This document shows, piece after piece, positions 12,291 through 54,226 of a stretch of 64,000 bases of DNA. The stretch lies in contig CANQED010000002.1 of NCBI GenBank assembly GCA_947594425.1, forward strand, positions 62,364 through 126,363, in the 5' to 3' direction. The position numbers were made by a program, and so were the translations under genes. The notes under the pieces are model-generated. The model did no database searches and was not told where the DNA came from. It was given only the letters and a program-made list of their open reading frames with translations. Source of the stretch: an uncultured Ruminiclostridium sp. GTDB lineage: Bacteria; Bacillota; Clostridia; Oscillospirales; Ruminococcaceae. Every line of letters begins with the position of its first letter. The first letter of the stretch is position 1.

Positions 12291-12698
12291 TTAGCCGCAG
12301 CCATGGCAGGTGCTGCAAGAGCCGCTGCACGCGGTATAGTCGCAGGTGTCGGGGTCCTCGCCGTTTACGCATAGAGAAATTATGCCGTTTACTTCATTGA
12401 CAAGCTTATCCATACCCTGCTTTGCCATTGTATAGTCCGCCATATGCTCATTGGACATGACCAGAGTATAAAGGCGCTGCATCTCCTTATTAGCCTCGTC
12501 GAGCTTTGCCTTGTCCTGCTCCTCGGGGCTCTTGCTCATCTCAAGTCCGACCTGCTGTCTTTTTAGGTTGAACTCGCCGATAAGCTGCTGTAATTCTTCG
12601 TCTGCGTCGTTGGCGAGCTTTGCGCGGTTATATTCTATATAACGCTCGTCCGCCTGTATCGCCTTTCCTAACTCTCTTGCTGCTTTTATTGCGTCCAT
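12291..12698 (-). CDS. YlbF/YmcA-family (UPF0342) protein with a Cys-rich C-terminal tail
   Basis: 135-aa helical protein (AARELGKAIQADERYIEYNRAK...) ending in CVNGEDPDTCDYTACSGSCSTCHGCG. It lies between miaB and mutS. Confidence 0.7.
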   Translation of the reverse strand: MDAIKAARELGKAIQADERYIEYNRAKLANDADEELQQLIGEFNLKRQQVGLEMSKSPEEQDKAKLDEANKEMQRLYTLVMSNEHMADYTMAKQGMDKLVNEVNGIISLCVNGEDPDTCDYTACSGSCSTCHGCG

Positions 12699-12738
12699 TT
12701 TTATTCTCCTTTATATTTGCGGCGTTAAGCCGTGTATT

Positions 12739-14118
12739 TTACTGTATAAGCTCTCCCTCTACCGCCCACGGCATAGCGCCGGTTATCTTTACCTTGACGA
12801 ATTTTCCTATGCAATCGTCAGGGCCCGTAAACCGCGTTATAATGCTCTGCCTGCTGTGACCGGTGAGGTACTCGGGCTTGTTCTTATCCCTGCCCGAGCA
12901 AAGCACCTCAAAGGTGCCGCCGATATACCTTTGATAATTTTGCAGTCCTATCTCGCCCTGCACCTCTAACAGCTCGCGCATCCACGCGCCCTTTTCTTTA
13001 TCGCTTACGGGGTCGGGGAGGAGCGCCGCCTTAGTCCCCTCGCGGCGGCTGTAGATAAAGGTGTACGCCATATCAAAGCGTATCTTCTTCATAAGCTCTA
13101 ATGTCTTAGAAAAGTCCTCGTACGTTTCCCCCGGAAAGCCGACTATTATATCGGTAGTAAGCGACAGGTCGGGTATCCTCGCCTTAGCGTATTCGGCGAG
13201 GGCGGTATAGCTCTCCACCGTATAGTTGCGGTTCATAGCCTTTAATATCCTGTCGCTGCCGCATTGCACGGGGAGATGTATATGGTGCTCGATATGTCTG
13301 CTGTCGGCTATGGTGTCTATCAGCTCGTGCGTGCAGTCCTTAGGATGGCTTGTCATAAAGGTTAGCTTATATTCTCCGTCTATATCGTCGAGCATTTTAA
13401 GGAGTGCCGCAAAGCTTACGCCGTGCTCTTTGCCGTAAGAATTTACATTCTGCCCGAGCAGCATAATTTCCTTATACCCGTCGGCGATAAGCTCCTTTAC
13501 CTCGTCATACACGGCCTTAGGAAGACGCGAGCGTTCCCTTTTTCTCACATACGGCACTATACAGTAGGTGCAAAAATTATTGCACCCGTACATAATAGGG
13601 ACGTACGCCTTTATTTTATCCTCGCGCAGGACGGGGATATCCTCGCTTATCTCCTCGCCGCCGTCAAGGTATGTGCCGCCCGTGTTTTGCGTCAGCTTTT
13701 CGTATATCAGCCTCGGAAGCTCTCTCGCGGCGTTGGTTCCGAATATTATATCAACTAAAGGAAAAGACGCGCGCAGCTTGTCGGCGATATGCCGCTGCTG
13801 GGTCATACATCCTCCGACCGCTATGATAAGCGAGCGGTTGTGCTCTTTAAGCTTTTTCAGCGCGCCGACATTGCCGAATACCTTGTCCTCGGCGTTTTCT
13901 CTTACGGCGCAGGTGTTGAGCAATATAAGGTCGGCGTCGGCGGTATCTGAGGTAAACTCGTACCCCATAGCCGCAAGTATGCCCTTAAGCTTCTCGCCGT
14001 CGCTGACATTTTGCTGGCAGCCGTAGGTATGTACGTACGCACTCGGCCTTTTTCCCGCGCTCTCAAAATACAGGCGGGCAGATCTCACATAACTGTCAAA
14101 GCTGTCAGACATATCCAC
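12739..14118 (-). CDS. miaB: tRNA-i6A37 methylthiotransferase MiaB
   Basis: 459 aa with an N-domain (TYGCQQN), a radical-SAM motif (CNNFCTYC) and a TRAM-like C-terminus. Confidence 0.9.
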   Translation of the reverse strand: MDMSDSFDSYVRSARLYFESAGKRPSAYVHTYGCQQNVSDGEKLKGILAAMGYEFTSDTADADLILLNTCAVRENAEDKVFGNVGALKKLKEHNRSLIIAVGGCMTQQRHIADKLRASFPLVDIIFGTNAARELPRLIYEKLTQNTGGTYLDGGEEISEDIPVLREDKIKAYVPIMYGCNNFCTYCIVPYVRKRERSRLPKAVYDEVKELIADGYKEIMLLGQNVNSYGKEHGVSFAALLKMLDDIDGEYKLTFMTSHPKDCTHELIDTIADSRHIEHHIHLPVQCGSDRILKAMNRNYTVESYTALAEYAKARIPDLSLTTDIIVGFPGETYEDFSKTLELMKKIRFDMAYTFIYSRREGTKAALLPDPVSDKEKGAWMRELLEVQGEIGLQNYQRYIGGTFEVLCSGRDKNKPEYLTGHSRQSIITRFTGPDDCIGKFVKVKITGAMPWAVEGELIQ

Positions 14119-14216
14119 GACCTCCCGTCAAAGCAAAATTACCCATATATAGTAGTCCATTTTATATTATACTACACTCCGTACAAAATATCAAGTGAAT
14201 TTTACATCTATTTTAC

Positions 14217-14245
14217 TTGCCATACGCAAAACAATATTGTATAAT
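14217..14245 (+). promoter_or_regulatory. Sigma-70-type promoter for the GTPase-NYN gene
   Basis: TTGCCA (14217-14222), 17-nt spacer, TATAAT (14240-14245) with an upstream TG. The SD GAAGGTG follows and the ATG is at 14267. Confidence 0.55.
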
Positions 14246-14266
14246 GTAAATAGAGAAGGTGTGCGT

Positions 14267-16855
14267 ATGAAAGAGCTTGGCAATTTTAAAAAGAGAATAG
14301 TTATCGGTATGGCGGCGCACGTCGACGCGGGCAAGACCACCCTTTCCGAGGCGCTGCTTTTTCACGCGGGAGAGATACGCAGGCGCGGCAGGGTCGACGA
14401 CGGTGACTCATATCTTGACACCCACCCGACCGAGCGGTCGCGCGGCATAACCGTATTCGCCCACTGCGCGAGGTTATCCCTCGGCGACAGCCTTTATACC
14501 CTGCTCGATACGCCGGGACACGCGGACTTTTCCGCCGAGACAGAGCGAGTATTGCAGGTTCTCGACTATGCGGTACTTGTCATAAGCGGGACGGACGGCG
14601 TGCAAAGCCACACCGAGACTATATGGCGGCTGCTTGACAGCTATAATATCCCCGTCTTTATATTCGTAAATAAAACCGATATGGCGGGCTATGATAAGGA
14701 CGCGGTCATGAACAGCCTTAATAATAGGCTCGGCGAGGGATTTATCGATTTTACCGATACCGCGTCCGAGGCGTTCTTTGAAGAATGTGCTATGAATGAC
14801 GACGACGCCGCCGAGCAATTTCTCGACAAAGGAAAAATAGACGATATAGTTATCGCGAGGGCGGTCGGCCGCCGCGGGATATTTCCCTGCATATTCGGCT
14901 CCGCGCTCAAAATGCAGGGCGTAGACAAGCTTGCCGAGCTGATAGAGAGGTTCACCCTATCGCCCGAATATTCGGACATATTCGGCGGGAGGATATACAA
15001 AATATCCGAGGACAAGGGCAAGCGGCTGAGCCTGTTAAAGGTGACGGGCGGCGCTCTGCGCGTCCGCGACAGCATAACCTACACCGCCAAAAACGGCGAA
15101 TTAATGACCGAGAAGATTAGCGAGCTGAGATTATACTCGGGCAGCAAATACGAAACCGTCGACTGCGTCCCCTGCGGCGTTATCTGCGCCGCCGTCGGGC
15201 TGTCCGACAGCCGCGCGGGCATGGGGCTCGGATACGAGAGTGGGCTAACGGAGCCGCTTCTCGAGCCTGTTATGACCTACTCGGTAGAGCCGCCCGAGGG
15301 CGTAGACAAATACACCCTCTTACAGCAGCTAAAGCAGCTCGAGCAGGAAGAGCCCGCGCTTAATGTACTAAGCACGCCGTTCGGCATATCGGTAAGGCTA
15401 ATGGGCGAAATACAGCTTGAGATACTGCGCGGTATGATAGAAGAGCGCTTTGGCATAAAGGCGCAATTCGGCACCGGAAAGGCGGCATATCTCGAAACGA
15501 TATCCGACACCGTCGAGGGGGTCGGACATTACGAGCCGTTAAAGCACTATGCCGAGGTGCATTTATTGCTCGAGCCATTGCCGCGCGGGTCGGGGCTGGT
15601 GTTTGATACGCTTTGCAGCGAGGAGCAGTTAGAGCGCAGCTATCAGCGGCAGGTTTTAAGCATATTAAAGGATACCACCCACCTCGGGGCGCTGACCGGC
15701 TCGCCGATAACGGATATTAAGATAACGCTTTGCAGCGGAAAGGCGCATATAAAGCACACCGAGGGCGGGGATTTTGCCCAAGCGGTACGGCGCGCCGTAC
15801 GGCAGGGACTGCGCACCGCAAAGAGCGTATTGCTCGAGCCGTATTATGATTTTACCCTTATACTCCCGTCGGAATATTCGGGGCGGGCTATTGTGGATAT
15901 ACAGCAGATGAACGGCGAATTTTCCCCGCCCATCACCGAGGGCGAAAACTCGGTGATAAAGGGGCACTGCCCCGCCGCCGCAATGAGCGGCTATCAGCGG
16001 CAGCTGACGGCATATACAAGGGGGAGGGGCAGACTCTTCTGCTCGTTCGGCGGATATACCGAGTGCGCCGACCCCGACAAAATTATCGCCGAGATAGGCT
16101 ATGACCCCGACAAGGACACCGAGAACTCCGCAGACTCGATATTCTGCTCGCACGGGGCGGGAGTTTTAGTAAGATATGACAAGGTAAAAGAGCATATGCA
16201 CCTGCCCTCCTGCCTTAAAGCTGCAAAGGAGGAGGAAGAGCGCATATCCGCATACCGCCGCGCAGAGAGCTTTGCCCAAAGAGCCGCGACCGACAAGGAG
16301 CTAATGGAGATATTCGAGCGCACCTACGGCAAAATTGACCGCGACCCGCGAAAGGCAATGGCTCCCGTGCCCAAACCCCCTACATACAAAAGCCGCGCCG
16401 CCGTGCGTATGGGTCCCGAGTACCTGCTTGTAGACGGGTATAATATCATCTTCGCGTGGGACGAGCTTAAAACTATCGCCGAGCAGAGCCTTGACGCGGC
16501 GCGCAGCCGTCTTATAAACATAATGTGCAGCTATCAGGGCTATCGGCAGTGCGAGCTTATCCTCGTATTTGACGCATACAAGGTCCCCGGCGGCACCCGC
16601 ACGATAGAAAGGGCGGGCGGCATATCCATAGTCTACACCAAAGAGCAGGAGACCGCCGACTCTTATATCGAAAAGACCTCGCACGTCCTCGCCAAAAACT
16701 ACCGCGTGCGCGTCGCCACCTCCGACGGCGCTGAGCAGGTAATAATCCTCGGCAGCGGCGCGCTGAGAGTCTCCGCCTCGGAGCTGTACGCCGAGGTCAA
16801 GGACGCCGAAAAGGCAGTCAGAGAGTATATAGAAAAGCTGAGGAGAGAGGTGTAG
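14267..16855 (+). CDS. Fusion protein: TetM/EF-G-like translational GTPase plus a C-terminal YacP/Rae1-type NYN ribonuclease domain
   Basis: G1 AHVDAGKT, G2 RGIT, G3 DTPGH, G4 NKTD and G5 SAL, with domains II-V collinear with TetM. A charged linker follows. From about 16418 the NYN motifs appear: LLVDGYN, VFDA, ETADSYIE, VATSD. The start is set at ATG 14267 (MKELGNF) after the SD. Confidence 0.8.
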   Translation: MKELGNFKKRIVIGMAAHVDAGKTTLSEALLFHAGEIRRRGRVDDGDSYLDTHPTERSRGITVFAHCARLSLGDSLYTLLDTPGHADFSAETERVLQVLDYAVLVISGTDGVQSHTETIWRLLDSYNIPVFIFVNKTDMAGYDKDAVMNSLNNRLGEGFIDFTDTASEAFFEECAMNDDDAAEQFLDKGKIDDIVIARAVGRRGIFPCIFGSALKMQGVDKLAELIERFTLSPEYSDIFGGRIYKISEDKGKRLSLLKVTGGALRVRDSITYTAKNGELMTEKISELRLYSGSKYETVDCVPCGVICAAVGLSDSRAGMGLGYESGLTEPLLEPVMTYSVEPPEGVDKYTLLQQLKQLEQEEPALNVLSTPFGISVRLMGEIQLEILRGMIEERFGIKAQFGTGKAAYLETISDTVEGVGHYEPLKHYAEVHLLLEPLPRGSGLVFDTLCSEEQLERSYQRQVLSILKDTTHLGALTGSPITDIKITLCSGKAHIKHTEGGDFAQAVRRAVRQGLRTAKSVLLEPYYDFTLILPSEYSGRAIVDIQQMNGEFSPPITEGENSVIKGHCPAAAMSGYQRQLTAYTRGRGRLFCSFGGYTECADPDKIIAEIGYDPDKDTENSADSIFCSHGAGVLVRYDKVKEHMHLPSCLKAAKEEEERISAYRRAESFAQRAATDKELMEIFERTYGKIDRDPRKAMAPVPKPPTYKSRAAVRMGPEYLLVDGYNIIFAWDELKTIAEQSLDAARSRLINIMCSYQGYRQCELILVFDAYKVPGGTRTIERAGGISIVYTKEQETADSYIEKTSHVLAKNYRVRVATSDGAEQVIILGSGALRVSASELYAEVKDAEKAVREYIEKLRREV

Positions 16856-16903: not shown

Positions 16904-17006
16904 TTTTTTGGGTGGAAAAATCCTAAGGCGCTGCGCCTTTTAATTCGTTTAATACTGCGAAAAATAAACCGTGGACTGAAATCAATCCACGGTTTGCTGT
17001 ATTCAC
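16904..17006. repeat. Dispersed double-hairpin intergenic repeat, copy 1
   Basis: tttgggtggaaaaatcctaaggcgctgcgcctttt...actgcgaaaaataaaccgtggactgaaatcaatccacggtttgctgtattcac. Paralogous copies lie at 37197, 57067 and 58841. Confidence 0.75.
16958..16995 (-). terminator. Rho-independent terminator of the LRR-FN3 gene
   Basis: Minus strand reads AAACCGTGGA-TTGATTTCAG-TCCACGGTTT followed by ATTTTT. Confidence 0.75.
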
Positions 17007-17015
17007 TTTGATTTT

Positions 17016-19289
17016 TTACTTAGTCTTTACGGTTATCGTCTTGTATCCGCTGTAGAGCGCTGTCTTTCCGCTCATCTTGTATGTCTTTACGCGGAATGCG
17101 TAGGCGGTCTTTGACTTAAGCCCCGACTTTTTGAACTCAACGGTGGAGTTCTTGGATATCTTGCCCGCTCTCTTCCAAACGCCGTTGACTTTCATCTCTA
17201 CGATATACCCATCGGCGGAAGTGTTCTTATTCCACGTCAGGCGGACTGCATTCTTAGCGGAAGCTTTCAGCTTCAGCCCTGCCACGGCGGAGGGGTTAGT
17301 GCGTACCGATATAGTCTTAGTTGCGCCGTACAAAGCGGTCTTGCCCGACATCTTGTAGGCCTTAACGCGGAAGGTGTACGCGGTGCCGGCTTTGAGCTTG
17401 GACTTCTTGAATTCAACGGTGGAATTCTTGGTTATCTTGCCGACACGCGTCCAAGCGCTGCCGCTCTTCATCTCGATTATGTAGCCGTCGGCGGAGGTGT
17501 TCTTTGTCCATGTGAGGCGCAATGCGTCGGCCGCGCGAGCCTTGAGCTTCAAGCCGCTTATTGCGCTCGGGTTGGTGCGGGCGGATATTGTGGTATAGCC
17601 GCTGTAGAGGGCGGTCTTGCCGTTCATCTTGTACGCCTTAATGCGGAACGTGTAAGCCGTGCCCGCCTTGAGCTTCGATTTCTTAAACTCAATGGTGGAG
17701 TTTTTCGTTATCTTGCCGACGCGCGTCCAGCTGTTACCGCTCTTCATTTCTATTATGTAGCCGTCAGCGGATGGGTTCTTTGTCCAAGAGAGGCGCAGAG
17801 CGTCGGCGGCGCGGGCTTTGAGCTTAAGTCCGGTGACGGAGGAGGGGGCGGTGGGGTTGTAATTGTAGTGGATAGTGGCGCTCAGCAACTCTTCGTTAAC
17901 CTCATCAATAGAGATTTTATCCCATTGTGCTTTAGAGCCGGTGTAGTAGATGTCAGTAAACTTCCAACAACCATATAAGATGTTTTGTTGTATATTTGTC
18001 ACACTTTCCGGTATAGTTAGTGAAACAAGGCCTGTGCAATTAAAAAAGGCATTTGATTTTATACTCGTCACACTGTCTGGTATGGTTATCGAGATGAGGC
18101 TTGTGCATTCATTAAAAGCACAATCTCCTATACTCGTCACGCTGTCGGGTATTGTTACCGAGGTAAGGCTTGAGCAGCCGGAAAAAGCCCAATCTCCTAT
18201 ACTCGTCACACTGTCGGGTATATCTATTGATGTGAGACTTGAGCATTCTGTAAACGCACCACTGCCTATGCTCTTTACGCTGTTGGGTATTTTGATTGAA
18301 GTAAGACTTGAGCAATATGTAAAAGCTGAACCTCCTATATTTATCACAGTGTCGGGTATACTTATTGATTTCAGGTTTGAACATTCATAAAACGTATAAT
18401 CTGCTATCCCAAAAGTGCCATCTTTTATTATTGCGGTTGTTGCATCTTCATTACAGCCGATTACCCACTTTCCTGCATACCTTACATCAGATGATTGATT
18501 ATCAAAAAAAGGAGTATTTGTAAATGCGTATCTTCCAATACATGACACACTGTCAGGTATATTAATTGAGGCGAGACTTTCACAAGAATCAAAAGCTTCA
18601 TATCCTATAATTGTTACTTTGTCAGGTATTTTTATAGAAGAAAGGTTTGAACAATATTCAAAAGCGGCATCACCTATGAAAATCAGACTGTCAGGAATGA
18701 AAATAGAAGTAAGGTCGGCGCAATTCTCAAAAGCGCTATCTGCTATCCCTACAGTTCCATTTGCTATTGTTGCTGACGATGTATCTTCATCACAATCAAC
18801 CGCCCAATTTTCAACATACTTAACTGTAGTTGTCTGGCTGTCAAGAAGCGGCGTGTGCGTAAACGCATCAGAGCCAATATCTTCTACACTGTCGGGTATA
18901 TTTATTGAAATAAGGCTTGAGCAGTTATTAAAAGCTTTACCTGCAATACTTATCATGTTGTTCGATATGCTTACCGATGTAAGATTTGAACAATTCTCAA
19001 AAGCACCAGCTTCTATATACGTCACACTATCGGGAATATTTATTGACTTAAGTGATGAGCAATTGTAAAAAGCGCTCATCCCTATACTCGTCACACTTTT
19101 CCCGTCTAAAGTCGATGGTATGAGTAATTCTTCTGCGTTTCCCATATACCGGAATATTTTTACAGTCCCGTCGCCGAGCACGTTGTACATATAATCCCCG
19201 CTCGTTTCCGCTCCCGCGCAGACGGTTATCGCGCACACCGCGAGCAAAGCCGCCGCGAGGGATATGAGCCCCGCAAATAACTTCTTCAT
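17016..19289 (-). CDS. Secreted BspA-type leucine-rich-repeat protein with a C-terminal triple FN3 module (family member A)
   Basis: Signal peptide MKKLFAGLISLAAALLAVCAITVCAGA from ATG 19289 after GGAGG. There are about 23-aa LRR units (IPDSVTSIGxxAFxxCxSLTS) and three roughly 92-aa FN3-like units. The protein ends ITVKTK. Confidence 0.85.
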   Translation of the reverse strand: MKKLFAGLISLAAALLAVCAITVCAGAETSGDYMYNVLGDGTVKIFRYMGNAEELLIPSTLDGKSVTSIGMSAFYNCSSLKSINIPDSVTYIEAGAFENCSNLTSVSISNNMISIAGKAFNNCSSLISINIPDSVEDIGSDAFTHTPLLDSQTTTVKYVENWAVDCDEDTSSATIANGTVGIADSAFENCADLTSIFIPDSLIFIGDAAFEYCSNLSSIKIPDKVTIIGYEAFDSCESLASINIPDSVSCIGRYAFTNTPFFDNQSSDVRYAGKWVIGCNEDATTAIIKDGTFGIADYTFYECSNLKSISIPDTVINIGGSAFTYCSSLTSIKIPNSVKSIGSGAFTECSSLTSIDIPDSVTSIGDWAFSGCSSLTSVTIPDSVTSIGDCAFNECTSLISITIPDSVTSIKSNAFFNCTGLVSLTIPESVTNIQQNILYGCWKFTDIYYTGSKAQWDKISIDEVNEELLSATIHYNYNPTAPSSVTGLKLKARAADALRLSWTKNPSADGYIIEMKSGNSWTRVGKITKNSTIEFKKSKLKAGTAYTFRIKAYKMNGKTALYSGYTTISARTNPSAISGLKLKARAADALRLTWTKNTSADGYIIEMKSGSAWTRVGKITKNSTVEFKKSKLKAGTAYTFRVKAYKMSGKTALYGATKTISVRTNPSAVAGLKLKASAKNAVRLTWNKNTSADGYIVEMKVNGVWKRAGKISKNSTVEFKKSGLKSKTAYAFRVKTYKMSGKTALYSGYKTITVKTK

Positions 19290-19305
19290 TTTAAACCTCC
19301 TATAA

Positions 19306-19334
19306 TCAAAAAGTGCGCAGCCGAAGCCGCGCAC
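19306..19334 (-). terminator. Intrinsic-terminator-like hairpin inside the 5' leader of gene A (candidate attenuator)
   Basis: Minus strand reads GTGCGCGGC-TTCG-GCTGCGCAC followed by TTTTTGAT. It ends a few nt before the SD (19296-19300). Confidence 0.6.
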
Positions 19335-19359
19335 CGAAAAATGCAAAGCTCCGATTGCT

Positions 19360-24838: not shown

Positions 24839-26041
24839 TTATTCGTTGATCTTGGTAACGACGCCCGAACCAACAGTTCTGCCGCCCTCACGGATAGCGA
24901 AACGAAGACCCTCTTCGATCGCGATGGGGGTGATAAGCTCAACGTCCATAGTTACGTTATCGCCGGGCAGGCACATTTCTTTGTCTGCGGGAAGAGTGAT
25001 AACGCCGGTAACGTCGGTAGTTCTGAAGAAGAACTGGGGTCTGTAGTTAGAGAAGAAAGGAGTATGACGTCCGCCCTCTTCTTTCTTCAGTACATAGACC
25101 TGACCCGAAAACTTCTTATGAGGATGGATCGAGCCGGGCTTGCAAAGTACCTGTCCACGTTCAACCTCGGATCTCTGTACACCACGGAGCAACGCGCCGA
25201 TGTTGTCGCCTGCCTGAGCAAAGTCGAGCAGCTTGCGGAACATCTCGATACCGGTAACGACGGTCTGCTTAGGCTCGTCTACAAGGCCTGTGATCTCTAC
25301 GGTGTCGTTGAGGTTAAGGATACCACGCTCAACTCTGCCGGTAACAACGGTGCCGCGTCCCGAAATGGTCATCGTATCCTCGATAGGCATAAGGAACGGA
25401 AGATCAGCCTTGCGGTCGGGAGTGGGGATGTACTCGTCAACAGCGTTCATAAGCTCGAGTATGCAAGCATACTCGGGAGCGTTGATGTCCTTGCTGTCAG
25501 AATCAAGAGCAACCTTAGCCGAACCGCGGATAACGGGTATCTCGTCGCCGGGGAAGTCGTGATCGCTAAGGGTCTCACGGATATCCATCTCAACGAGGTC
25601 GAGCAGCTCGGGATCGTCTACGTCGTCGCACTTGTTGATAAATACGACCATAGCGGGAACGCCTACCTGGTGAGCAAGCAGGATGTGCTCCTTAGTCTGA
25701 GCCATAGGACCGTCTGTACCTGCAACAACGAGGATAGCGCCGTCCATCTGAGCCGCGCCGGTAATCATGTTCTTGATGTAGTCAGCATGGCCGGGGCAGT
25801 CAACGTGAGCATAGTGACGCGCGTCGGTCTCATACTCTACGTGTGCGGTGTTGATAGTGATACCACGCTCTCTCTCCTCGGGAGCCTTGTCTATCATATC
25901 ATAAGCCTCAAACTTTGCCTGACCCTTAAGAGCGAGCACCTTGGTGATAGCTGCGGTAAGAGTGGTCTTGCCGTGGTCAACGTGACCGATAGTACCAATG
26001 TTTACGTGGGGCTTGGTACGTTCAAATTTTTCTTTTGCCAT
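24839..26041 (-). CDS. tuf: Elongation factor Tu
   Basis: 400 aa with [18 protein letters not shown] and NKCD. Confidence 0.98.
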
Positions 26042-26092
26042 TGGATTGTTCCTCCTTTAATTATGTGTAGTATTCCGTACACCTCACTTGAT

Positions 26093-26121
26093 ATTGTAAC
26101 AGAAAACCGTTAAAAATACAA
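26093..26121 (-). promoter_or_regulatory. Candidate internal promoter ahead of tuf
   Basis: Minus strand reads TTGTAT, 17 nt, TACAAT with an upstream TGT. Confidence 0.45.
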
Positions 26122-26176
26122 GTGTTTTTTTAGATTTTTTAATATTTTTTTAAGCGGCGGCAAATTGCCGTAAAAA

Positions 26177-28255
26177 TTATTCCTTGCCGCGCTTATTGAT
26201 TATGCCGTCCGCAATGGACTTGGGCACCTGGATATAATGGCTGGGCTCCATTACATACTGACCGCGTCCCTGTGTCTTAGAGCGCAGGTCGTTGGAGTAG
26301 CCGAACATCTCGGACAGCGGAACGAAAGCGTTTATCTGCTTTATGCCGTTCCTGTCGTCCATACCCTGTATCTCGCCGCGGCGTGAGCTCAAGTCGCCGA
26401 TAACGTCGCCCATATATTCCTCGGGGACGGTAACGACTACCTTCATTATAGGTTCGAGTATTACGGGGTTAGCCTTGCGGCAAGCCTCTTTAATAGCCAT
26501 AGAGCCCGCTATCTTAAACGCCATTTCGGACGAGTCTACCTCGTGGTAAGAGCCGTCGTACAGGTCTACCTTAACGTCTACGGTCTGATAGCCCGCGAGA
26601 ACGCCCGACTCGAGCGCGCCGCGTATACCTGCGTCTACCGCGGGGATATACTCCTTGGGTATAGCGCCGCCGACAACGCTGTTGGTAAACTCATAGCCCT
26701 TGCCCGACTCGTTGGGATAAACGTGCAGCTTAACGTGACCGTACTGACCTTTACCGCCCGACTGACGCGCGTACTTGGTGTCCACGTCGGCGGGAATGGT
26801 GATAGTCTCTTTATATGCGACCTGCGGAGCGCCTACGTTAGCCTCTACCTTAAACTCGCGCAGCAGTCTGTCTACGATTATCTCAAGGTGAAGCTCGCCC
26901 ATGCCCGCGATGATGGTCTGACCCGTCTCGTCGTTGGTGTAGGTCTTGAATGTGGGGTCCTCCTCCGCAAGCTTTGCAAGCGCGAGAGCCATCTTCTCCT
27001 GACCTGCCTTGGTCTTGGGCTCGATAGCAAGGTCGATGACCGGCTCCGGGAACTCCATAGACTCAAGTATTACCGGGTGCTCCTCATCGCAAAGAGTATC
27101 GCCCGTGGTGGTATTCTTTACACCTACGGCGGCGGCGATATCACCGCAGTAGCATATCTCAAGGTCCTGCCTGTGATTTGCGTGCATCTGAAGGATACGA
27201 CCTATGCGCTCTTTCTTGTCCTTAGTGGCGTTTAGCACGGTGGTACCCGTGGATATGGTACCCGAGTATACTCTGAAGAAGCAGAGCTTTCCTACAAAGG
27301 GGTCGGTAGCTATCTTGAACGCCAAAGCCGAGAACGGCTGGTCGTCGCCCGCGTGCCTTTCTACCTCTTCGCCCGTCTCGGGGTTAGTGCCCTTTATAGC
27401 GGGTACGTCGAGAGGCGAGGGCATATAGTCGATTATAGCGTCGAGCAGCTTCTGCACGCCCTTATTTCTGTAAGAGGTGCCGCAGACAACGGGAACTATC
27501 TCGTTATCTATGGTAGCCTTACGCAGAACTCTCTTTACCTCTTCGGTGGAGATCTCCTCGCCCTCAAGGAACTTGTCCATAAGCTCCTCGTCCTGCTCGG
27601 CGACCGCCTCCATGAGCTCGTCGTGATACTTCTGGGCAGTTTCTTTCATGTCCTCGGGGATCTCCTCGACACGCATATCCTTGCCCAGATCATCGTAGTA
27701 AATATCGGCGTTCATCTCGATAAGATCGATAATGCCTCTAAAGCTGTCCTCGGCGCCGATAGGGAGCTGAATAGGAACGGCGTTGCATTTAAGCCTGTCC
27801 TTCATCATGCTCACAACATTGTAAAAGTCCGCTCCCATAATGTCCATCTTATTTACATATGCCATTCTGGGAACTCTGTATTTGTCCGCCTGACGCCAAA
27901 CCGTTTCCGACTGGGGCTCTACACCGCCCTTAGCGCAGAAAACCGTGACCGAGCCGTCAAGCACTCTCAGCGAACGTTCGACCTCGACAGTGAAGTCAAC
28001 GTGGCCGGGAGTATCGATAATATTGATCCTGTGCTTCTTCCAGTAGGCTGTGGTAGCGGCCGAGGTTATCGTGATACCTCTTTCCTGCTCTTGAGCCATC
28101 CAGTCCATCGTCGCAGCGCCGTCGTGCACCTCGCCGAGCTTGTGGTTTATACCTGTATAAAACAGTATACGCTCGGTGGTGGTAGTCTTGCCCGCGTCGA
28201 TGTGAGCCATTATACCAATATTACGGGTCATCTCGAGAGATACATCTCTACCCAT
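26177..28255 (-). CDS. fusA: Elongation factor G
   Basis: 692 aa with [20 protein letters not shown] and NKMD. It sits in the str-operon order. Confidence 0.98.
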
Positions 28256-28274
28256 ATTTCCTCCGTCTGTCAGA

Positions 28275-28745
28275 TCACCACTTGTAATGAGCGAAAGCCT
28301 TGTTGGCTTCTGCCATTCTGTGGGTGTCGTCTCTCTTCTTGCAAGCTCCGCCCTGACCGTTCAGAGCGTCGAGAATTTCGTTTGCAAGTCTTTCTTTCAT
28401 TGTTTTTTCGTTTCTCTGTCTGCTGTAAAGGGTTATCCACCTAAGACCCAAGGTCCTCCTTCTTTCGGGGCGGACCTCCATAGGTACCTGATAAGTAGCA
28501 CCGCCGACGCGGCGTGCCTTTACCTCTAACTGAGGCATAATGTTCTCCATTGCCTCTTCAAATGCTTCGAGAGCGCCCTTGCCCGACTTCTCGGCTACTA
28601 TTTCAAATGCGCCGTATACTATCTTCTGGGCTACTCCCTTTTTGCCGTCAAGCATGATGTTGTTGATAAGTCTTGTTACCAGCTGCGAACCGTACAAAGG
28701 GTCCGGCAGTACCTCACGCTTGGGAACGTTACCTCTCCTTGGCAC
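28275..28745 (-). CDS. rpsG: 30S ribosomal protein S7
   Basis: GTG at 28745 is preceded by AAGGAGGGAAG and gives [20 protein letters not shown]. The track's longer start adds a non-conserved extension. Confidence 0.95.
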
Positions 28746-28921
28746 TTTACTTCCCTCCTTCATAAGAAAATGAAAATCATAGGTACTCGAAAGCATTCAA
28801 CTTCCGCCGCTGCCGCAGAGAATACCGCCCGCACCTATTATATATAAGTGCCTTGGCATAAACGTCGGGAATACCCGACGCTGTATATATCTCCACGCAT
28901 CGTGGTCGGTTATCTTAAACT

Positions 28922-29347
28922 TTACGATTTTTTACCCGCCTTCGGACGCTTTGCGCCGTACTTGCTTCTGCCCTGCATTCTTCCGTCAACGCCCTGAGCG
29001 TCAAGTGTTCCTCTTACGATGTGGTAACGCACACCGGGGAGATCCTTAACACGTCCGCCGCGGATAAGAACAACGCTGTGCTCTTGCAGCTTGTGACCGA
29101 TACCCGGGATATAAGCGGTTACTTCAAAACCGTTGGACAGTCTTACTCTGGCTATCTTTCTCATAGCGGAGTTAGGCTTTTTCGGGGTCGCGGTACGTAC
29201 TGCGGTGCATACGCCTCTCTTCTGAGGTGACGGCAGGTCTGTCGTCTGCTTTTTGAGCGTGTTCATGCCCTTTTGCAGTGCGGGAGCCTTCGATTTCTTC
29301 TCGTGAACGGCTCTGCCCTTACGAACCAATTGGTTAAAGGTTGGCAA
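28922..29347 (-). CDS. rpsL: 30S ribosomal protein S12
   Basis: 141 aa with a TTG start, [12 protein letters not shown] and KKPNSAMRK. Confidence 0.97.
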
Positions 29348-29429
29348 AATTTACACCTCCTTATAATATTTACTTGGCGCTTTAGCGATATTTCCCGCTT
29401 ATGTGAAAATATTCTGCGCGCATTTTATT

Positions 29430-29458
29430 ATTATATACAAAAAAACGGTAATTGTCAA
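29430..29458 (-). promoter_or_regulatory. Sigma-70-type promoter of the rpsL-rpsG-fusA(-tuf) operon
   Basis: Minus strand reads TTGACA (29458-29453), 17 nt, TATAAT (29435-29430). Confidence 0.65.
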
Positions 29459-29518
29459 GTTTTTGAGAGTTTGGCTCAAAAATTTGTAGCAATTACCGCT
29501 TTTTGCTTAAATCAAAAC

Positions 29519-33094
<3,576 letters not shown>

Positions 33095-33144
33095 TGTACA
33101 GACCTCAATTCTTTATAAGATTAACTTTTCGAGCAAGCCTTAAC

Positions 33145-36100
33145 TTATTCGTTGTAATCGTCGTCGTCGGCATCTTCTAATTCGTCGATGTCGTCCTCGT
33201 CATCCTCAAAATCGATGTCGTCCTCAAAGTCGTCATCGTCCTCTTCGTCGTCGGCGTAAAAGTCCTCGTCGTCCTCGACGTCGCGGGTGATGAACGCGTC
33301 GTCAAGCGAGCCCTCCTCGACAACGTATTCAAAGTTGTCGTCGCCCGCCTGAAGTCCGATATCGTCGTCGTCTTCAAAGGTGTGCTTTAGGTCTATCTCG
33401 TTATGATCCTCGTCAAGCACGCTGATGTCAAGACCGAGCGCCTGAAGCTCTTTGATAAGCACCTTAAAGCTCTCTGGAACGCCCGCCTCGGGGACGGGAT
33501 CGCCCTTTACTATAGCTTCATAGGTCTTAACGCGTCCGTCTATATCGTCGGATTTTACCGTCAGTATCTCCTGCAAGGTGTACGCCGCGCCGTAAGCCTC
33601 GAGCGCCCACACCTCCATCTCGCCGAAACGCTGACCGCCGAACTGCGCCTTACCGCCTAACGGCTGCTGCGTTACGAGAGCATAAGGACCTGTTGAACGT
33701 GCGTGTATCTTATCGTCTACAAGGTGATGCAGCTTAAGATAATACATATATCCCACGGTTACGGGGCTGTCGAACTTCTCGCCCGTACGCCCGTCTATAA
33801 GCTGGGTCTTTGCGTCGGGGTTCATAGGTATCTTGGAGAAATCTATCCTCGGGCTGTCCTTATCGGGATAGTCCGCCCTTATCTTCTCCGCCTCGGCAAA
33901 GCATTCTCTTATATCCTGCTCGTGCGCGCCGTCAAATACGGGGGTCATTATCTGCCAGCCTAATGCCTTGCACGCATAGCCGAGGTGTACCTCGAGCACC
34001 TGACCGATATTCATACGCGACGGAACGCCGAGGGGGTTGAGCACGATGTCAAGCGGCGTGCCGTCGGGTAAGAACGGCATATCCTCCTGCTTTAATATGC
34101 GTGATACGACGCCCTTATTTCCGTGTCTGCCCGCCATTTTATCGCCGACGGAGATCTTTCTCTTCTGCGCGATATAGCAGCGTACGACTTCGTTTACTCC
34201 GGGGCTCAATTCTTCGCAGTTCTGACGGGTGAACACCTTTACGTCCACGATAATTCCGCTCTCGCCGTGAGGAACGCGCAGGGAGTTGTCCCTTACCTCT
34301 CTTGCCTTTTCGCCGAATATCGCGCGCAGCAGTCTTTCTTCTGCGGTAAGCTCGGTCTCTCCCTTAGGAGTTACCTTACCGACAAGGATATCTCCCGCCT
34401 GCACCTCCGCGCCTATGCGGATAATGCCGCGCTCGTCGAGGTCTTTAAGCGCGTCCTCGCCGAGGTTGGGTATATCTCTCGTTATCTCCTCGGGACCGAG
34501 CTTTGTATCTCTGCACTCGAGCTCGTATTCTTCTATATGGATAGAGGTAAATGTGTCGTTGTATACGAGTTTCTCGCTTATCAGGACAGCGTCCTCGTAA
34601 TTGTAGCCCTCCCACGTCATAAAGCCTATCAGCGCGTTTTTGCCCAGCGAAATTTCGCCCTGCGAGGTGGCGGGGCCGTCGGCGAGCACGTCGCCGACCT
34701 TTACCTCCATGCCCTTTTCGACAGCGGGCTTTTGATTTATGCAGGTGCCTTGGTTAGAGCGCTTGAATTTTATGAGCTTATACTTATGCTCTTGACCGTT
34801 TTTGTCGGTGACGATTATCTCGTCCGCCGTCACGGAGGTCACAACGCCGTCCTCCTTAGCGAGCACAACAACGCCGGAATCTATCGCCGCCTTGTACTCC
34901 ATACCGGTGCCGACTATCGGGTTCTCGGTTATCATCAGCGGCACAGCCTGACGCTGCATGTTAGCGCCCATAAGCGCACGGTTAGCGTCGTCGTTTTCCA
35001 AAAACGGTATCATTGCGGTAGCCACGGACACCACCATCTTAGGCGAAATATCCATATAGTCTACCTTTTCGCGCTCGACCTCGAGTATCTCCTCGCGGCA
35101 GCGCGCGTTTACACGCTTTCTTGCAAAGCGGCCCTGCTCGTCGAGCGGCTCGTTAGCCTGAGCTACGATATAATTGTCCTCGACGTCGGCGGTCATATAA
35201 TGAACCTCGTCGAGCACCACACCCGTCTCTTTATCCACCTTGCGGTAGGGCGCTTCGATAAAGCCGTACTTGTTTATCTTTGCAAAGGACGCAAGATAGG
35301 ATATAAGTCCTATATTCGGTCCTTCGGGGGTCTCTATAGGACACATACGCCCATAGTGCGAATAGTGTACGTCGCGCACTTCAAATCCCGCGCGGTCACG
35401 CGAAAGTCCGCCCGGACCGAGCGCGGATAATCTTCTCTTATGAGTAAGCTCCGCGAGCGGGTTATTCTGATCCATAAACTGCGATAACGGTGACGAGCCG
35501 AAAAACTCTTTTATCGCCGCTACCACGGGTCTTATATTTATCAGCGAATTAGGCGATACCTTATCGGGCTCCTGTGACTGCAGTCCCATACGCTCGCGTA
35601 TAACTCTCTCCATACGCGCAAAGCCTATGCGGAACTGGTTTTGCAGCAGCTCGCCGACCGAGCGTATACGCCTGTTGCCGAGGTGGTCTATATCGTCGAC
35701 CTCTCCCACGCCGTCGCACAGATTGATAAAATAGCTTACCGACGCGAAAATATCGTCAAGCGTGATATGCTTAGGCAGCAGCCTGTCAAGATTATTGCGG
35801 ATACCCTCTTTTATGCCCTCCTCGTCGGACGCGCCCTCGAGTATCTCCTGAAGTACCTTAAAGCTTACCTTTTCGTTTACGCCGAGCTCCTCGGGGTCGA
35901 TGGTGTCGGGGATATATCCCTTTATATCCACCATACCGTTGCCTATTACCTTTACCTCTTTATCCTCGGCAAAGATAACGCACTCCATAACGCCTGCCTG
36001 CTCTATCTCGGCAGCCTTATCGGCGGTTATAAATTCGCCCGCGTCGCAGAGCAATTCGCCGGTGGAGGGGCTTATTATCGGAGCGGCAGCCTTTCTGCCC

Positions 36101-36975
36101 GCTATTCTCGCGCTTACTCCGAGCTTTTTATTGTATTTATAGCGGCCGAACCTCGCAAGGTCGTATCTCCTCGCGTCAAAGAACAGCGAATTTAAGTGGT
36201 TCTGCGCGCTCTCTACCGTAGGCGGCTCCCCGGGGCGCAGCTTTCTGTACACCTCGAGCAATGCCTCTTCGGTGTTCTTGGTGGTGTCCTTATCGGTCAC
36301 GGTCTGCACTATCAGCGGTTCTTCGCCGAAAAGATCGGTAAGATCGCTGTCGCTCGATATCCCGAGCGCGCGCATAAGCGTGGTCGCGGGTATCTTTCTG
36401 TTCTTGTCTATGCGGACATAGAATATATCGTTAGAGTCCATTTCGTACTCCAGCCACGCGCCGCGGTTGGGGATAACGGTGGAATGGAACAGCTTTTTGC
36501 CCGATTTATCATAATCAAAGCCGAAATACACGCCCGGAGAACGCACCAGCTGCGACACGATAACACGCTCCGCGCCGTTTATCACAAAGGTGCCCGAGTC
36601 GGTCATAAGCGGAAAATCGCCCATAAATATCTCGTTTTCCATGACCTCGCCGGTCTCGGTGTTTCTCAGCTGTGCCTTTACTCTAAGCGGAGCGGCGTAA
36701 GTAACGTCACGTTCCTTGCACTCTTCTATAGTATATTTCGGTTCTTCGTCCAGCCTGTAGTCAACAAAGCTCAGCACAAGCTTGCCGTTTGCGTCGGTGA
36801 TAGAAGAAATATCGTTGAATACCTCTTTTATTCCCTCTTTCAAAAACCAGTTATAGGAATCCTTTTGGATCTCTATAAGGTTAGGCATCGGCTGCACCTC
36901 ATTGATCTTGGAAAAACTCAGACGGGCATTCCTGCCCAGCTTTACCTGCTTGACATTCACCATGGGCTTTACCAC
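33145..36975 (-). CDS. rpoB: RNA polymerase beta subunit with a roughly 75-aa polyacidic C-terminal extension
   Basis: 1276 aa with [15 protein letters not shown] and other beta signatures. The tail is [12 protein letters not shown]...[35 protein letters not shown]. The start could instead be the ATG at 36963. Confidence 0.97.
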
Positions 36976-39772: not shown

Positions 39773-39853
39773 GATTTTCCTCCGTTCTTCCATAATTTGG
39801 AAAATTTTCGCACGTGCGGCATTTACTGCCGCAACTGCTAATTGTACACTAAA

Positions 39854-39882
39854 ATAATAGCACAACTTACTTGAGTTGTCAA
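39854..39882 (-). promoter_or_regulatory. Sigma-70-type promoter of gene C
   Basis: Minus strand reads TTGACA (39882-39877), 17 nt, TATTAT (39859-39854). Confidence 0.6.
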
Positions 39883-40796: not shown

Positions 40797-42119
40797 TCAC
40801 CTATACAGATCTTCTATCAAACTATTCATCTTATCCCCCGCCTTAGGTTCTGCGTCAGAGTACCTAAGCCGCGAATACTGCCCCGATATCTCCTCGATAT
40901 CGCACTGACCCATATACACCTGCTTTGCCTCGTCCGTCTGCTGCTCTACGGTAAACGACGGGGTCAGTCTGCGGCTGTGCTTACTAAGCCACATAAGATA
41001 CAGCCTGTAGCCTATGCGGTACTTTGTCTTGGGGTCCTTTTCTTTTTTATAATCTTTCAGCAAAGCCGAGGGCGACTGCTTTATCTCTCGCTCGGTGCGC
41101 TGTGAGATATGCTCGTACCTGTCGGCGTAATTTTCCTCCTGCATAGTATTTTCCACTACGGAGAACTTGCCGAACAGCTTAGCCGCCACCGCCTTAAACA
41201 GTGCGACGATCTTCTTTCTGAGCAAAATCACAGCCACTACCGCAATTACAAGCACGATATATATAAGATAATCCCTGCCCTGTCCGTCCATGCTGAACAG
41301 GCTGCCGAGCTCAAGCGTATTGTCCCCCTGCTGCGCAGGCGCGCTGTACATCTTTATATTATTGAGCAAATCGTCGATAAGCCTGCCCGTAGTCACAGCG
41401 AGCCACCTAAGCCCCGACGCTATCGGGTCTTTAAGCAGCAGCAGCAAAAGCGCCGCGCCGCAGACGACCCCGATAAGTCCCGCGTTGAACTTTCTCAGTC
41501 CGCGCGGCACTATCAGGCTTATGCTCTTTCTGCGCCCGACTTGGGTATCGATGTTAGCTTGATTTATAAGCAGCACGGTCAGCATAGCGGTTATTATCAG
41601 CTGATAGGCGGCCGCCGTGCGGCACACGGACATGACCTCTATATCCTCTTGCTGCACCGCCGCGAAGATAACGCACACAAAGCATTCTACTATAAACATC
41701 CCGAGCCATACGGGAGTATACACCTCGCTGTAGCCCGTGCCTTTAAGCTTTATGCCTAAATAATACCACAGCATTATCGCGGGCAGCAAGCCAAGCGTTA
41801 AGGTAAAGCCGTTAAACTTGTCCCCCGCGCCTATGCTCCCCGCGACGGGTATAAAGATAAGCCACAGCACGAACAGCAGCACCGCTCCCGCCGCTATCAA
41901 TATATTTACGCCGAATACCTTTTTAGGCGAGACCTGCGCCCGCCTTAAGGTGCAAAGAAAATACCCGCCGGTTATCGGTATAACAGACAGTGCGAAATAA
42001 ACTATGTATCTCAGTATATTTATATTGCGGAACGCCGCGGCGTCGGCAAGCATCATCAGCGGCAAGGGCAGCACAAGCATTACCGCCGCGGCAAGTATCT
42101 TAAGCGCTCTGCTCCTCAT
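40797..42119 (-). CDS. Polytopic membrane protein with a DUF4129-like C-terminal tail and no transglutaminase core
   Basis: Multiple TM segments, then a cytoplasmic tail ...LTPSFTVEQQTDEAKQ...ISGQYSRLRYSD. The start is set at ATG 42119, which forms an ATGA overlap with the upstream DUF58 stop. Confidence 0.65.
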   Translation of the reverse strand: MRSRALKILAAAVMLVLPLPLMMLADAAAFRNINILRYIVYFALSVIPITGGYFLCTLRRAQVSPKKVFGVNILIAAGAVLLFVLWLIFIPVAGSIGAGDKFNGFTLTLGLLPAIMLWYYLGIKLKGTGYSEVYTPVWLGMFIVECFVCVIFAAVQQEDIEVMSVCRTAAAYQLIITAMLTVLLINQANIDTQVGRRKSISLIVPRGLRKFNAGLIGVVCGAALLLLLLKDPIASGLRWLAVTTGRLIDDLLNNIKMYSAPAQQGDNTLELGSLFSMDGQGRDYLIYIVLVIAVVAVILLRKKIVALFKAVAAKLFGKFSVVENTMQEENYADRYEHISQRTEREIKQSPSALLKDYKKEKDPKTKYRIGYRLYLMWLSKHSRRLTPSFTVEQQTDEAKQVYMGQCDIEEISGQYSRLRYSDAEPKAGDKMNSLIEDLYR

Positions 42120-43246: not shown

Positions 43247-43247
43247 A

Positions 43248-44192: not shown

Positions 44193-44193
44193 A

Positions 44194-45123: not shown

Positions 45124-45156
45124 ACTTGTTCCTCCCTTTGCCGCATAATTTTATCC

Positions 45157-54163: not shown

Positions 54164-54192
54164 TTGAAAAATCCTAATAGATGTGGTATACT
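54164..54192 (+). promoter_or_regulatory. Candidate promoter of the PP2C-HATPase gene
   Basis: TTGAAA (54164-54169), 17 nt, TATACT (54187-54192). It is overlapped by a second copy of CTTACATTATGT. Confidence 0.5.
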
Positions 54193-54226
54193 TACATTAT
54201 GTAATATTACTTACAGGAGGCATATT

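Follow-up and report, generated by a model that had tools for sequence, protein, structure and literature searches.

Within a 64,000-nucleotide stretch of DNA from an uncultured Ruminiclostridium sp. (contig CANQED010000002.1; hereafter the window, with positions counted from its first letter), a single uninterrupted open reading frame (ORF) at 14267–16855 on the plus strand encodes a protein of 862 amino acids (aa), its stop codon lying at 16853–16855. Judged from sequence, the first 645 residues are an intact translational GTPase of the EF-G family, and the last 144 residues are predicted from their acidic residues to be a catalytically intact endoribonuclease domain of the Rae1/YacP NYN type. 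A first-pass annotation, made from the letters of the window, had proposed such a GTPase–nuclease fusion in one unbroken frame, and had raised a frameshift or assembly join as a concern. The junction is collinear in hundreds of independent sequences, and such an artefact is ruled out by the same architecture across the junction in relatives. An alternative in-frame GTG start lies upstream of the ATG, at 14195, and would give a protein of 886 aa; the GAGAAGG that precedes the ATG favours the start at 14267.

The GTPase body carries all five G motifs listed in that annotation at the expected residues (AHVDAGKT 17–24, RGIT 59–62, DTPGH 81–85, NKTD 135–138 and SAL 212–214), followed by domains II–V in order, as had also been proposed. 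Domains III, IV and V exceed their Pfam cutoffs; domain II is matched weakly, with GTP_EFTU_D2 and EF-G_D2 falling under the Pfam gathering score, and is collinear with that of EF-G (Table 1). With G1–G5, a histidine after DxxG and this domain order, the protein belongs to the EF2/EF-G family of translational GTPases. The G motifs and the catalytic His85 are invariant across 43 aligned relatives, and the GTPase motifs are retained in 93–99% of 321 full-length relatives. A further signature, H[T/S]xGGDF, marks the tip of domain IV: it is invariant in the alignment of 43 relatives and occurs in 92.5% of the 321 fused proteins as well as in 117/117 relatives that lack the nuclease.

The C-terminal domain, which had been put at about 145 aa and assigned to Rae1/YacP from its motifs, matches Pfam NYN_YacP (PF05991) over residues 720–858 (6.5e-49; 166.5 bits against a cutoff of 24.6; profile positions 1–141 of 166) and holds every motif named for it: LLVDGYN 720–726, VFDA 767–770, ETADSYIE 795–802 and VATSD 816–820. 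The last 142 residues align end to end, with few gaps, with the B. subtilis YacP/Rae1 structures 5MQ8 and 5MQ9 (E=1.3e-26), and the domain is modelled at a predicted local distance difference test score (pLDDT) of about 80–88. Residues D723, D769, D798 and D820 align with Rae1 D7, D53, D81 and D104; D723 and D798 are invariant in the alignment of relatives, and a Rae1 mutant in the corresponding positions, D7N D81N, is catalytically dead in vivo (PMC10351889). Across the 321 full-length relatives, the NYN acidic motifs are retained in 84–100%. At 45.7% and 44.4% identity, respectively, to B. subtilis Rae1 and C. difficile YacP, two proteins that are 41.7% identical to each other, the fused domain reads as an orthologue-grade relative of Rae1. 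What differs is the tail past the last catalytic motif, which measures 42 aa here and has a median of 40 aa in fused proteins versus 69 aa in standalone ones. Set beside 109 standalone Lactobacillaceae proteins, the fused NYN is missing a C-terminal extension of about 27 aa, and its tail has a net charge of −1 versus +4. Loss of this basic extension is consistent with targeting having been taken over by the GTPase.

The first-pass annotation had called the GTPase TetM-type, a label that does not survive comparison with curated families. The best NCBIfam model is tet_protect (NF012153), whose curated cutoff of 775 bits is far above the 376 bits scored here; the TetM/W/O/S model scores 262 bits against 1100, and the EF-G cutoff is not reached either (TIGR00484, 272 bits against 659). 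Identity to annotated Tet(M), Tet(O), Tet(W) and Tet(S) is about 29%, and to TetB(P) 31%. Loop III of domain IV reads GLYYSPVSTPADFR in Tet(M), Tet(O) and Tet(W) and SGKAHIKHTEGGDFA in the same columns of the fusion protein (seven-way alignment); the tip loop occupies the place of the Tet(M) sequence YYSPVSTPADF in the alignment with Tet(M)/(O)/(W) and EF-G. The C-terminal RPNSRIDKVRxMFxK of these protection proteins is missing, and a 43-aa module containing FCSHGAG stands in its place. In Tet(M), loop III (L505, S508, P509 and V510) is needed, with Pro509 contacting 16S C1054 and displacing the drug, and the C-terminal extension is a short helix required for activity (PMC8161019, PMC4750697).

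Relatives that lack the nuclease help to place the GTPase. The closest is a 644-aa protein of Ligilactobacillus salivarius (WP_049770576, pHN3), 44.5% identical over residues 6–645, and a search with it leads to a chromosomal family of 640–665 aa across the Lactobacillaceae, whose members are named 'elongation factor G', 'TetM...' or 'translation factor GTPase family protein'. All but one of 117 such unfused relatives (116/117) hold the FCxHGAG module and they end at a median of 22 residues past it; the YSP[VI]S motif of the protection-protein loop occurs in 0/117. When 47 fused bodies and 25 unfused proteins were placed with Tet(M)/(O)/(W) in a bootstrapped neighbour-joining tree, a single EF-G serving as outgroup, fused and unfused proteins formed one clade (100/100) and the protection proteins another (100/100). 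On sequence grounds, we place the GTPase in a subfamily of its own, apart from both EF-G and the tetracycline protection proteins. Within the clade, the unfused proteins are monophyletic (100/100) and monophyly of the fused ones is recovered in 0/100 replicates; mean identity is 45.5% between fused and unfused proteins and 44.5% among fused ones, with 28.6% to the Tet protection proteins. This pattern suggests that the Lactobacillaceae GTPases nest inside the fused radiation and have secondarily lost a redundant NYN domain.

That the protein is a ribosomal protection protein against tetracycline or another antibiotic, with an accessory RNase, was floated by Atkinson in 2015 and is implied by its database name. 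Its best NCBIfam model is indeed tet_protect, its overall length and short G′ resemble those of Tet proteins, and a public annotation reads 'TetM/TetW/TetO/TetS family...'. Given a score far under the cutoff, the low identity to the Tet proteins, the absence of the Pro509 loop and of the required C-terminal helix, the missing YSP[VI]S in the unfused relatives, the separate clade and a chromosomal position without mobile-element context or a tet(M)-type leader peptide, we give this explanation next to no credence.

As a candidate in its own right, a TETRACYCLINE protection protein is rejected on the tet_protect score, loop III, the C-terminal helix and the clade position. Other public names carried by members of the clade are 'elongation factor G', 'GTP-binding protein', 'NYN domain-containing protein' and 'Tetracycline resistance protein TetM from transposon Tn916'. 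Since the Tet-family sequence features that were tested are all absent, name-based resistome surveys may over-count tet genes.

Between the two halves, a charged, Pro-rich linker of about 70 aa had been described. A disordered Pro/Lys-rich stretch is present, but the description missed a folded module (603–645) that precedes it and a conserved helix (676–690) that lies inside it. The module is modelled at pLDDT of about 75–82, holds residues that are invariant in relatives and forms the native C-terminus of the unfused relatives (116/117). No Pfam family covers it, the matches at E≤10 being SGS and Cas3-like_C_2 noise with E>0.1, and a Foldseek search with the whole model was dominated by EF-G and uninformative on the module. 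The tether that follows consists of a long charged helix (649–673, low confidence), the conserved helix and a disordered Pro/Lys-rich segment (692–715, pLDDT<50). The helix motif is found in 69% of the 321 members under a strict pattern and is lacking in the unfused relatives, which stop earlier. From FCSHGAG (626–632) to LLVDGYN the distance is 87 aa here and has a median of 90 aa among 212 proteins (interquartile range 88–94; range 73–206). A tether that is flexible yet constrained in length suggests a required reach, and the structure model likewise suggests that it may provide functional reach rather than a rigid dock.

These features also bear on the possibility that the halves are joined for stoichiometry or co-regulation only and act independently in the same stress response. 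A linker that is mostly disordered or of low confidence would suit such an arrangement; each half exists and works separately in other lineages, and B. subtilis Rae1 needs no GTPase. Set against this are the persistence of the fusion in 150 or more clusters (50% identity) and 595 or more species, the narrow spread of tether lengths, the invariant helix specific to the fusion and the loss from the NYN of the standalone-type C-terminal extension, and we regard independent action as distinctly unlikely.

Table 1. Features of the fusion gene and its product, with window positions
Feature	Residues (aa)	Position	Strand	Basis
Promoter-like site TTGCCA-17-TATAAT (predicted)		14217–14245	+	11/12 matches; consensus match only
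Shine-Dalgarno GAGAAGG		14253–14259	+	Sequence read; 7 nt ahead of ATG
GTPase–NYN fusion coding sequence, complete	1–862	14267–16855	+	ORF, Pfam domains, collinear relatives
G domain, G1–G5 and His85	9–228	14291–14950	+	Pfam GTP_EFTU (1.5e-47); G′ 75 aa versus 143 aa in EF-G (alignment)
Domain II	~241–322	14987–15232	+	Weak Pfam; beta-barrel in structure model; collinear with EF-G
Domain III	333–402	15263–15472	+	Pfam EFG_III (1.4e-06)
Domain IV	407–519	15485–15823	+	Pfam EFG_IV (4.4e-19)
Domain IV tip loop GKAHIKHTEGGDF	491–503	15737–15775	+	Clade signature H[T/S]xGGDF
Domain V	521–601	15827–16069	+	Pfam EFG_C (2.1e-19)
C-terminal module of the GTPase clade, ...IGYDPDKDTENSADSIFCSHGAG...MHL	603–645	16073–16201	+	Helix, beta-hairpin, helix
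Tether	646–718	16202–16420	+	Structure model, pLDDT 37–59
Fusion-specific conserved helix DKELMEIFERTYGKI	676–690	16292–16336	+	Invariant E678 L679 I682 F683 E684 T686 Y687 G688
Rae1/YacP-type NYN endoribonuclease domain	719–862	16421–16852	+	Pfam NYN_YacP; PDB 5MQ8/5MQ9
Two GC-rich hairpins, probable terminators		16925–16939 and 16966–16995	undefined	160-nt spacer of convergent genes

The fusion belongs to a large family. The best 120 clusters at 90% identity all show the same five-plus-one domain layout, with lengths of 803–905 aa, and an exhaustive HMMER scan of 1.84 billion representatives of 50%-identity clusters returned, as its best 150, proteins that all match at E≤1e-181 and nearly all span 830–1000 aa, with end-to-end matches at 40–57% identity. 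When one genome per species was scanned, a relative was found in at least 595 species, the best 80 of which all carry full-length fusions; the survey of distribution proposed with the first-pass annotation thus finds the architecture shared by relatives across the Clostridia. Hosts among these 80 include Oscillospiraceae, Ruminococcus (including R. flavefaciens), Faecalibacterium prausnitzii, Intestinimonas, Flavonifractor, Anaerotruncus and Acutalibacteraceae, together with many Lachnospiraceae, Monoglobus and one metagenome-assembled genome of Peptostreptococcaceae, and annotated fusion copies exist in Agathobacter rectalis and Monoglobus pectinilyticus. Whole orders of Clostridia carry the fusion as a core gene, in one copy and in housekeeping surroundings. 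One full-length copy (52% identity) sits on a 6.7-kb contig, CAVEPP010000094.1, in a bin labelled Alloprevotella sp. (Bacteroidota), and is most likely a Clostridia binning contaminant rather than a transfer.

The first-pass annotation knew of no characterised protein of this architecture, which fits the literature searches as to function: no functional study of the fusion after 2017 was found in the open-access and bioRxiv literature, and recent Rae1 papers make no mention of a GTPase–NYN fusion. The architecture itself, however, is already on record. In 2015, Atkinson noted TetM-like–NYN_YacP proteins in 'ten species', assigning the GTPase to the Tet group without settling on a function (BMC Genomics 16:78), and Matelska et al. 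listed 'TetM-NYN_YacP fusion proteins' in 'some Clostridia' in 2017, calling their role unclear (NAR 45:6995, PMC5499597). The present gene is one member of this catalogued but uncharacterised architecture. New here are the size of the family, the delimitation of a separate GTPase clade by distinctive signatures and the unfused Lactobacillaceae members nested within it, as well as the length-constrained tether, the fusion-specific helix, the truncated NYN tail and the apparent replacement of standalone rae1.

This last point rests on where NYN genes lie. A standalone gene occupies the order cysS-mrnC-(thyX)-rlmB-NYN-sigH in C. difficile, Latilactobacillus curvatus and Levilactobacillus zymae, and in combined tblastn searches for NYN and RlmB of the plasmid and chromosome-fragment collection PLSDB, the NYN gene directly adjoins rlmB in 11 Bacilli and Peptostreptococcales species. 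On the rlmB records of Monoglobus (which bears the fusion), Vescimonas and Subdoligranulum no NYN was found; rlmB is followed by a YmdB-type phosphoesterase gene and pgeF in Monoglobus and by a gene for a 718-aa hypothetical protein in Vescimonas. The sole NYN match in the Monoglobus records of the collection is the fusion, and 80/80 fusion loci hold exactly one NYN. Lactobacillaceae with the NYN-less GTPase retain standalone Rae1; in Levilactobacillus zymae the unfused GTPase and standalone Rae1 are both present at the species level, in different assemblies. The canonical rae1 slot of the organism studied here falls outside the window, synteny with fusA-tuf-rpoBC breaking after rpoB. In Monoglobus and Agathobacter, an rplK anchor gave no information, as neither sigH nor rlmB lies upstream of it there. 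From this complementary pattern, drawn from a small sample with Clostridia genomes that are incomplete in the collection, the fusion appears to replace standalone rae1 in these Clostridia.

Many PLSDB 'plasmid' records are evident chromosome fragments (NZ_OY7257xx / OY7258xx, NZ_CP143948.1 and NZ_CP1496xx–CP1497xx). They carry rplK, rpoBC, fusA and rlmB of Monoglobus, Agathobacter, C. difficile, Collinsella and Subdoligranulum, a caveat for plasmid statistics.

The surroundings of the fusion gene are those of a solitary, chromosomal, housekeeping-type gene. As the first-pass annotation had read the locus, the gene has its own (predicted) promoter, is convergent with a surface-protein gene, here identified as encoding a BspA-type leucine-rich repeat (LRR)/Fn3 protein (17016–19346, minus strand), and lies outside the translation operons. 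A terminator scan assigned both hairpins in the intervening spacer to the minus strand; on the plus strand, a weak T-rich run follows the first. Upstream, the divergent genes encode a MiaB-like radical-SAM enzyme, a YlbF/YmcA homologue and MutS. Because the organism's own fusA (26177–28255) and tuf lie elsewhere in the window, the GTPase–NYN protein would be an accessory factor. Its neighbours are not conserved: a 71%-identical homologue sits between type IV pilus genes and an M20 peptidase gene, and when the ORFs of 80 loci were clustered, flanks of as much as 10 kb to either side included, no flanking family recurred in more than 7/80.

This setting weighs on the idea of an abortive-infection or toxin-like device that, once activated by phage or stress, shuts off translation by global RNA cleavage on ribosomes. 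Ribosome-dependent RNases are common as toxins, and the Rae1 literature speculates on collision nucleases acting against phage mRNA. The fusion protein, however, has no match among the PADLOC defence models, no conserved antitoxin, immunity or sensor neighbour appears in the 80 loci, and a single-copy core gene of whole Clostridia orders in housekeeping surroundings is a poor fit to such a role, which we consider very improbable.

What the nuclease would do on the ribosome depends on where Rae1 acts. The first-pass annotation had reasoned from an A-site-dependent Rae1 to a device that delivers an RNase into the decoding centre. The premise no longer holds: the A-site model rested on docking and has been withdrawn by the laboratory that proposed it, the cut having been mapped to the trailing edge of the stalled ribosome, 12 nt 5′ of its A site, and delivery into the decoding centre is accordingly not the best reading. 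A 2026 CART preprint reports that Rae1 is needed for collision-induced tmRNA tagging and states that Rae1 has no ribosome-bound structure to date, as its binding is transient. Native disomes of B. subtilis pair a non-rotated stalled ribosome with a collided one in a rotated, hybrid state.

At about even odds (roughly 0.5), we propose that the fusion is a Rae1-type mRNA endonuclease with a built-in ribosome-targeting GTPase, which docks on a stalled or collided ribosome, cuts the mRNA nearby and feeds ribosome rescue. In this model, the GTP-bound body would dock at the factor-binding site of a ribosome that is unable to proceed. The most plausible target would be the rotated, hybrid-state trailing ribosome of a collided pair, a blocked EF-G-type substrate, with a stalled ribosome with an empty A site as the alternative. 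The invariant domain IV tip would be inserted towards the decoding centre, and the tether of about 90 residues would let the NYN domain reach the mRNA entering the bound ribosome, which in a disome would be the bridge at the leading ribosome's rear, where free Rae1 cuts. Cleavage would leave a truncated mRNA, and the ribosomes would be passed to trans-translation. GTP hydrolysis on the sarcin-ricin loop would free the factor and limit its dwell time, and hence confer specificity. The fusion would stand in for the standalone rae1 gene in these Clostridia.

Several points weigh against this proposal. The ribosome state, the cleavage position, the RNA substrate and the role of GTP are ones we infer, and B. 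subtilis Rae1 acts without such a GTPase, so that a GTPase is no general requirement. The GTPase subfamily is uncharacterised, its unfused form included, and the conserved domain IV tip could serve a separate function in the decoding centre that is unrelated to positioning a nuclease. The argument from reach combines general ribosome geometry with a low-confidence model of the linker. The apparent replacement of standalone rae1 draws on three Oscillospirales/Monoglobales genomes, seen as fragments in a plasmid collection, and a standalone rae1 may lie elsewhere in those genomes or in that of the organism studied here. The nesting of the unfused clade, finally, depends on a distance-method tree with a single EF-G root.

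A different substrate is also conceivable: with the GTPase bound to the 70S ribosome or a subunit, the NYN domain would cut rRNA or ribosome-bound tRNA, and in the rRNA-cutting variant would serve maturation, or the inactivation or turnover of ribosomes in starvation or sporulation. YacP-type NYN proteins were first proposed to act in rRNA/tRNA maturation from their linkage to rlmB and mrnC, several rRNA elements lie within reach of a factor-site anchor, and many host lineages form spores. Yet the sole experimentally defined activity of the NYN family is translation-dependent cleavage of mRNA, the fused domain stands no further from Rae1 than orthologues of Rae1 stand from each other, a site-specific rRNA cut beside the anchor would be an odd use of a long flexible tether, and the apparent takeover from standalone rae1 speaks for an unchanged function. 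Cleavage of rRNA or tRNA is in our estimate unlikely.

The mRNA-cleaving model has a broader form, in which the GTPase subfamily defined by the H[T/S]xGGDF tip and the FCxHGAG module is dedicated to sensing ribosomes that have stalled or collided and acts together with Rae1, in cis in the Clostridia and possibly in trans in the Lactobacillaceae. The fusion would then be a Rosetta stone for a pathway so far overlooked. We offer this generalization tentatively and hold it to be rather unlikely. Were it true, it would amount to GTP-gated bacterial no-go decay, with a nuclease delivered by a mimic of an elongation factor, and to a subfamily mis-named TetM or EF-G in thousands of gut-bacterial genomes.

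The neighbourhoods of two unfused relatives share nothing with each other. On the L. salivarius pHN3 megaplasmid (L004:4536–6926), the unfused GTPase gene is divergent from an extra rpsN (S14) and a gene for a 'putative metal homeostasis protein'; the rpsN pairing is not seen in two other Lactobacillaceae species (L094, L096) and may be coincidental. In Levilactobacillus zymae (L096:8027–8621), a YafQ-toxin/RelB-antitoxin pair lies directly downstream of the unfused GTPase gene, a single case; YafQ is a ribosome-dependent mRNA interferase.

Elsewhere in the window, a core cluster on the minus strand (24839–36975) comprises tuf (24839–26041), fusA, two small ORFs (28275–28796 and 28922–29347) that from their position are probably rpsG and rpsL, and two large ORFs (29519–33094 and 33145–36975) that from size and position are probably rpoC and rpoB. 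Upstream of the presumed rpoB, a surface-protein gene replaces the usual rplL/rplJ, breaking synteny with Bacillus and C. difficile. The proteins encoded at 17016–19346 and 37307–39865, both on the minus strand, are secreted paralogues of the BspA type (LRR_5), each with three Fn3 repeats at the C-terminus; in the former, the Fn3 units are near-identical tandem copies, and the 5′ LRR part falls in a stretch of low GC content (0.36–0.42 versus about 0.52 elsewhere) at ~18.0–19.7 kb. At 12291–14118 (minus strand), the YlbF/YmcA-family gene (Com_YlbF, 1e-22) stands downstream of the MiaB-like methylthiotransferase gene and upstream of mutS, an order that resembles B. subtilis ymcB-ymcA...mutS. 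The B. subtilis YlbF/YmcA proteins are cofactors of RNase Y; no link between this gene and the fusion gene was found. A 965-aa protein encoded at 54164–57061 (plus strand) joins a 5TMR-LYT membrane sensor, a SpoIIE-type PP2C phosphatase and a C-terminal HATPase_c_2 domain resembling anti-sigma kinases, an unusual phosphatase–kinase fusion that is possibly a partner-switching regulator. A 926-aa transglutaminase-like (TgpA-type) membrane protein is encoded at 45157–47937 (minus strand), in a same-strand gene run at 40797–50120.

Compared with known systems, the fusion shares with Tet(M), Tet(O) and Tet(W) a five-domain EF-G-like body, a short G′, an intact GTPase centre and presumably the binding site on the ribosome; the Tet proteins differ in their YSPVSTP loop III and C-terminal helix, and the fusion is not on mobile elements. 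Its closest solved fold is EF-G (Foldseek E=1.7e-52), with the same G motifs and a domain IV tip that keeps a histidine at the EF-G H573/H583 position; identity, however, is 26.6%, G′ spans 75 rather than 143 residues, the loops of domain IV differ and the C-terminal module is extra. The unfused Lactobacillaceae GTPases, an uncharacterised translation factor of food and probiotic bacteria, have the same tip and module and belong to the same clade, but end about 22 residues past the module, without tether or NYN, in hosts that keep a separate Rae1. The fusions reported in 2015 and 2017 have the identical domain order and come from the same taxonomic group, whereas the family as seen here is far larger, with a relative in at least 595 species, and its GTPase falls into a separate non-Tet clade that includes the unfused Lactobacillaceae proteins. 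Dominant gut commensals (Faecalibacterium, Ruminococcus and Lachnospiraceae) carry the family as a core gene, which is widely annotated as a 'TetM/TetW/TetO/TetS family tetracycline resistance ribosomal protection protein'.

B. subtilis Rae1/YacP has the same NYN_YacP fold over about 142 residues, with all four acidic motifs, and the fusion probably shares its task on ribosomes that have stalled or collided. Rae1 itself is untethered, about 170 aa long and encoded next to rlmB; it binds ribosomes transiently and bears a basic C-terminal extension of about 27 aa. The NYN of the fusion is without this extension, tethered to a 645-aa GTPase and encoded at a locus unrelated to cysS-mrnC-rlmB-yacP-sigH. 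A natural, covalently tethered Rae1 could make ribosome recognition by Rae1 tractable by cryo-EM. The proposed logic, in which a stall or collision is sensed, the mRNA is cut and the ribosome rescued, is that of E. coli SmrB and of Cue2/NONU-1 with Hbs1-Dom34, although the nucleases of these systems have an SMR fold that is unrelated to NYN. In eukaryotes, the translational GTPase Hbs1 acts in the same pathway as a stall-triggered endonuclease, and we know of no characterised system in which nuclease and translational GTPase form one polypeptide. If our model is true, the fusion would be the first translational GTPase and quality-control nuclease in a single chain, and a bacterial counterpart of Hbs1/Dom34 together with Cue2.

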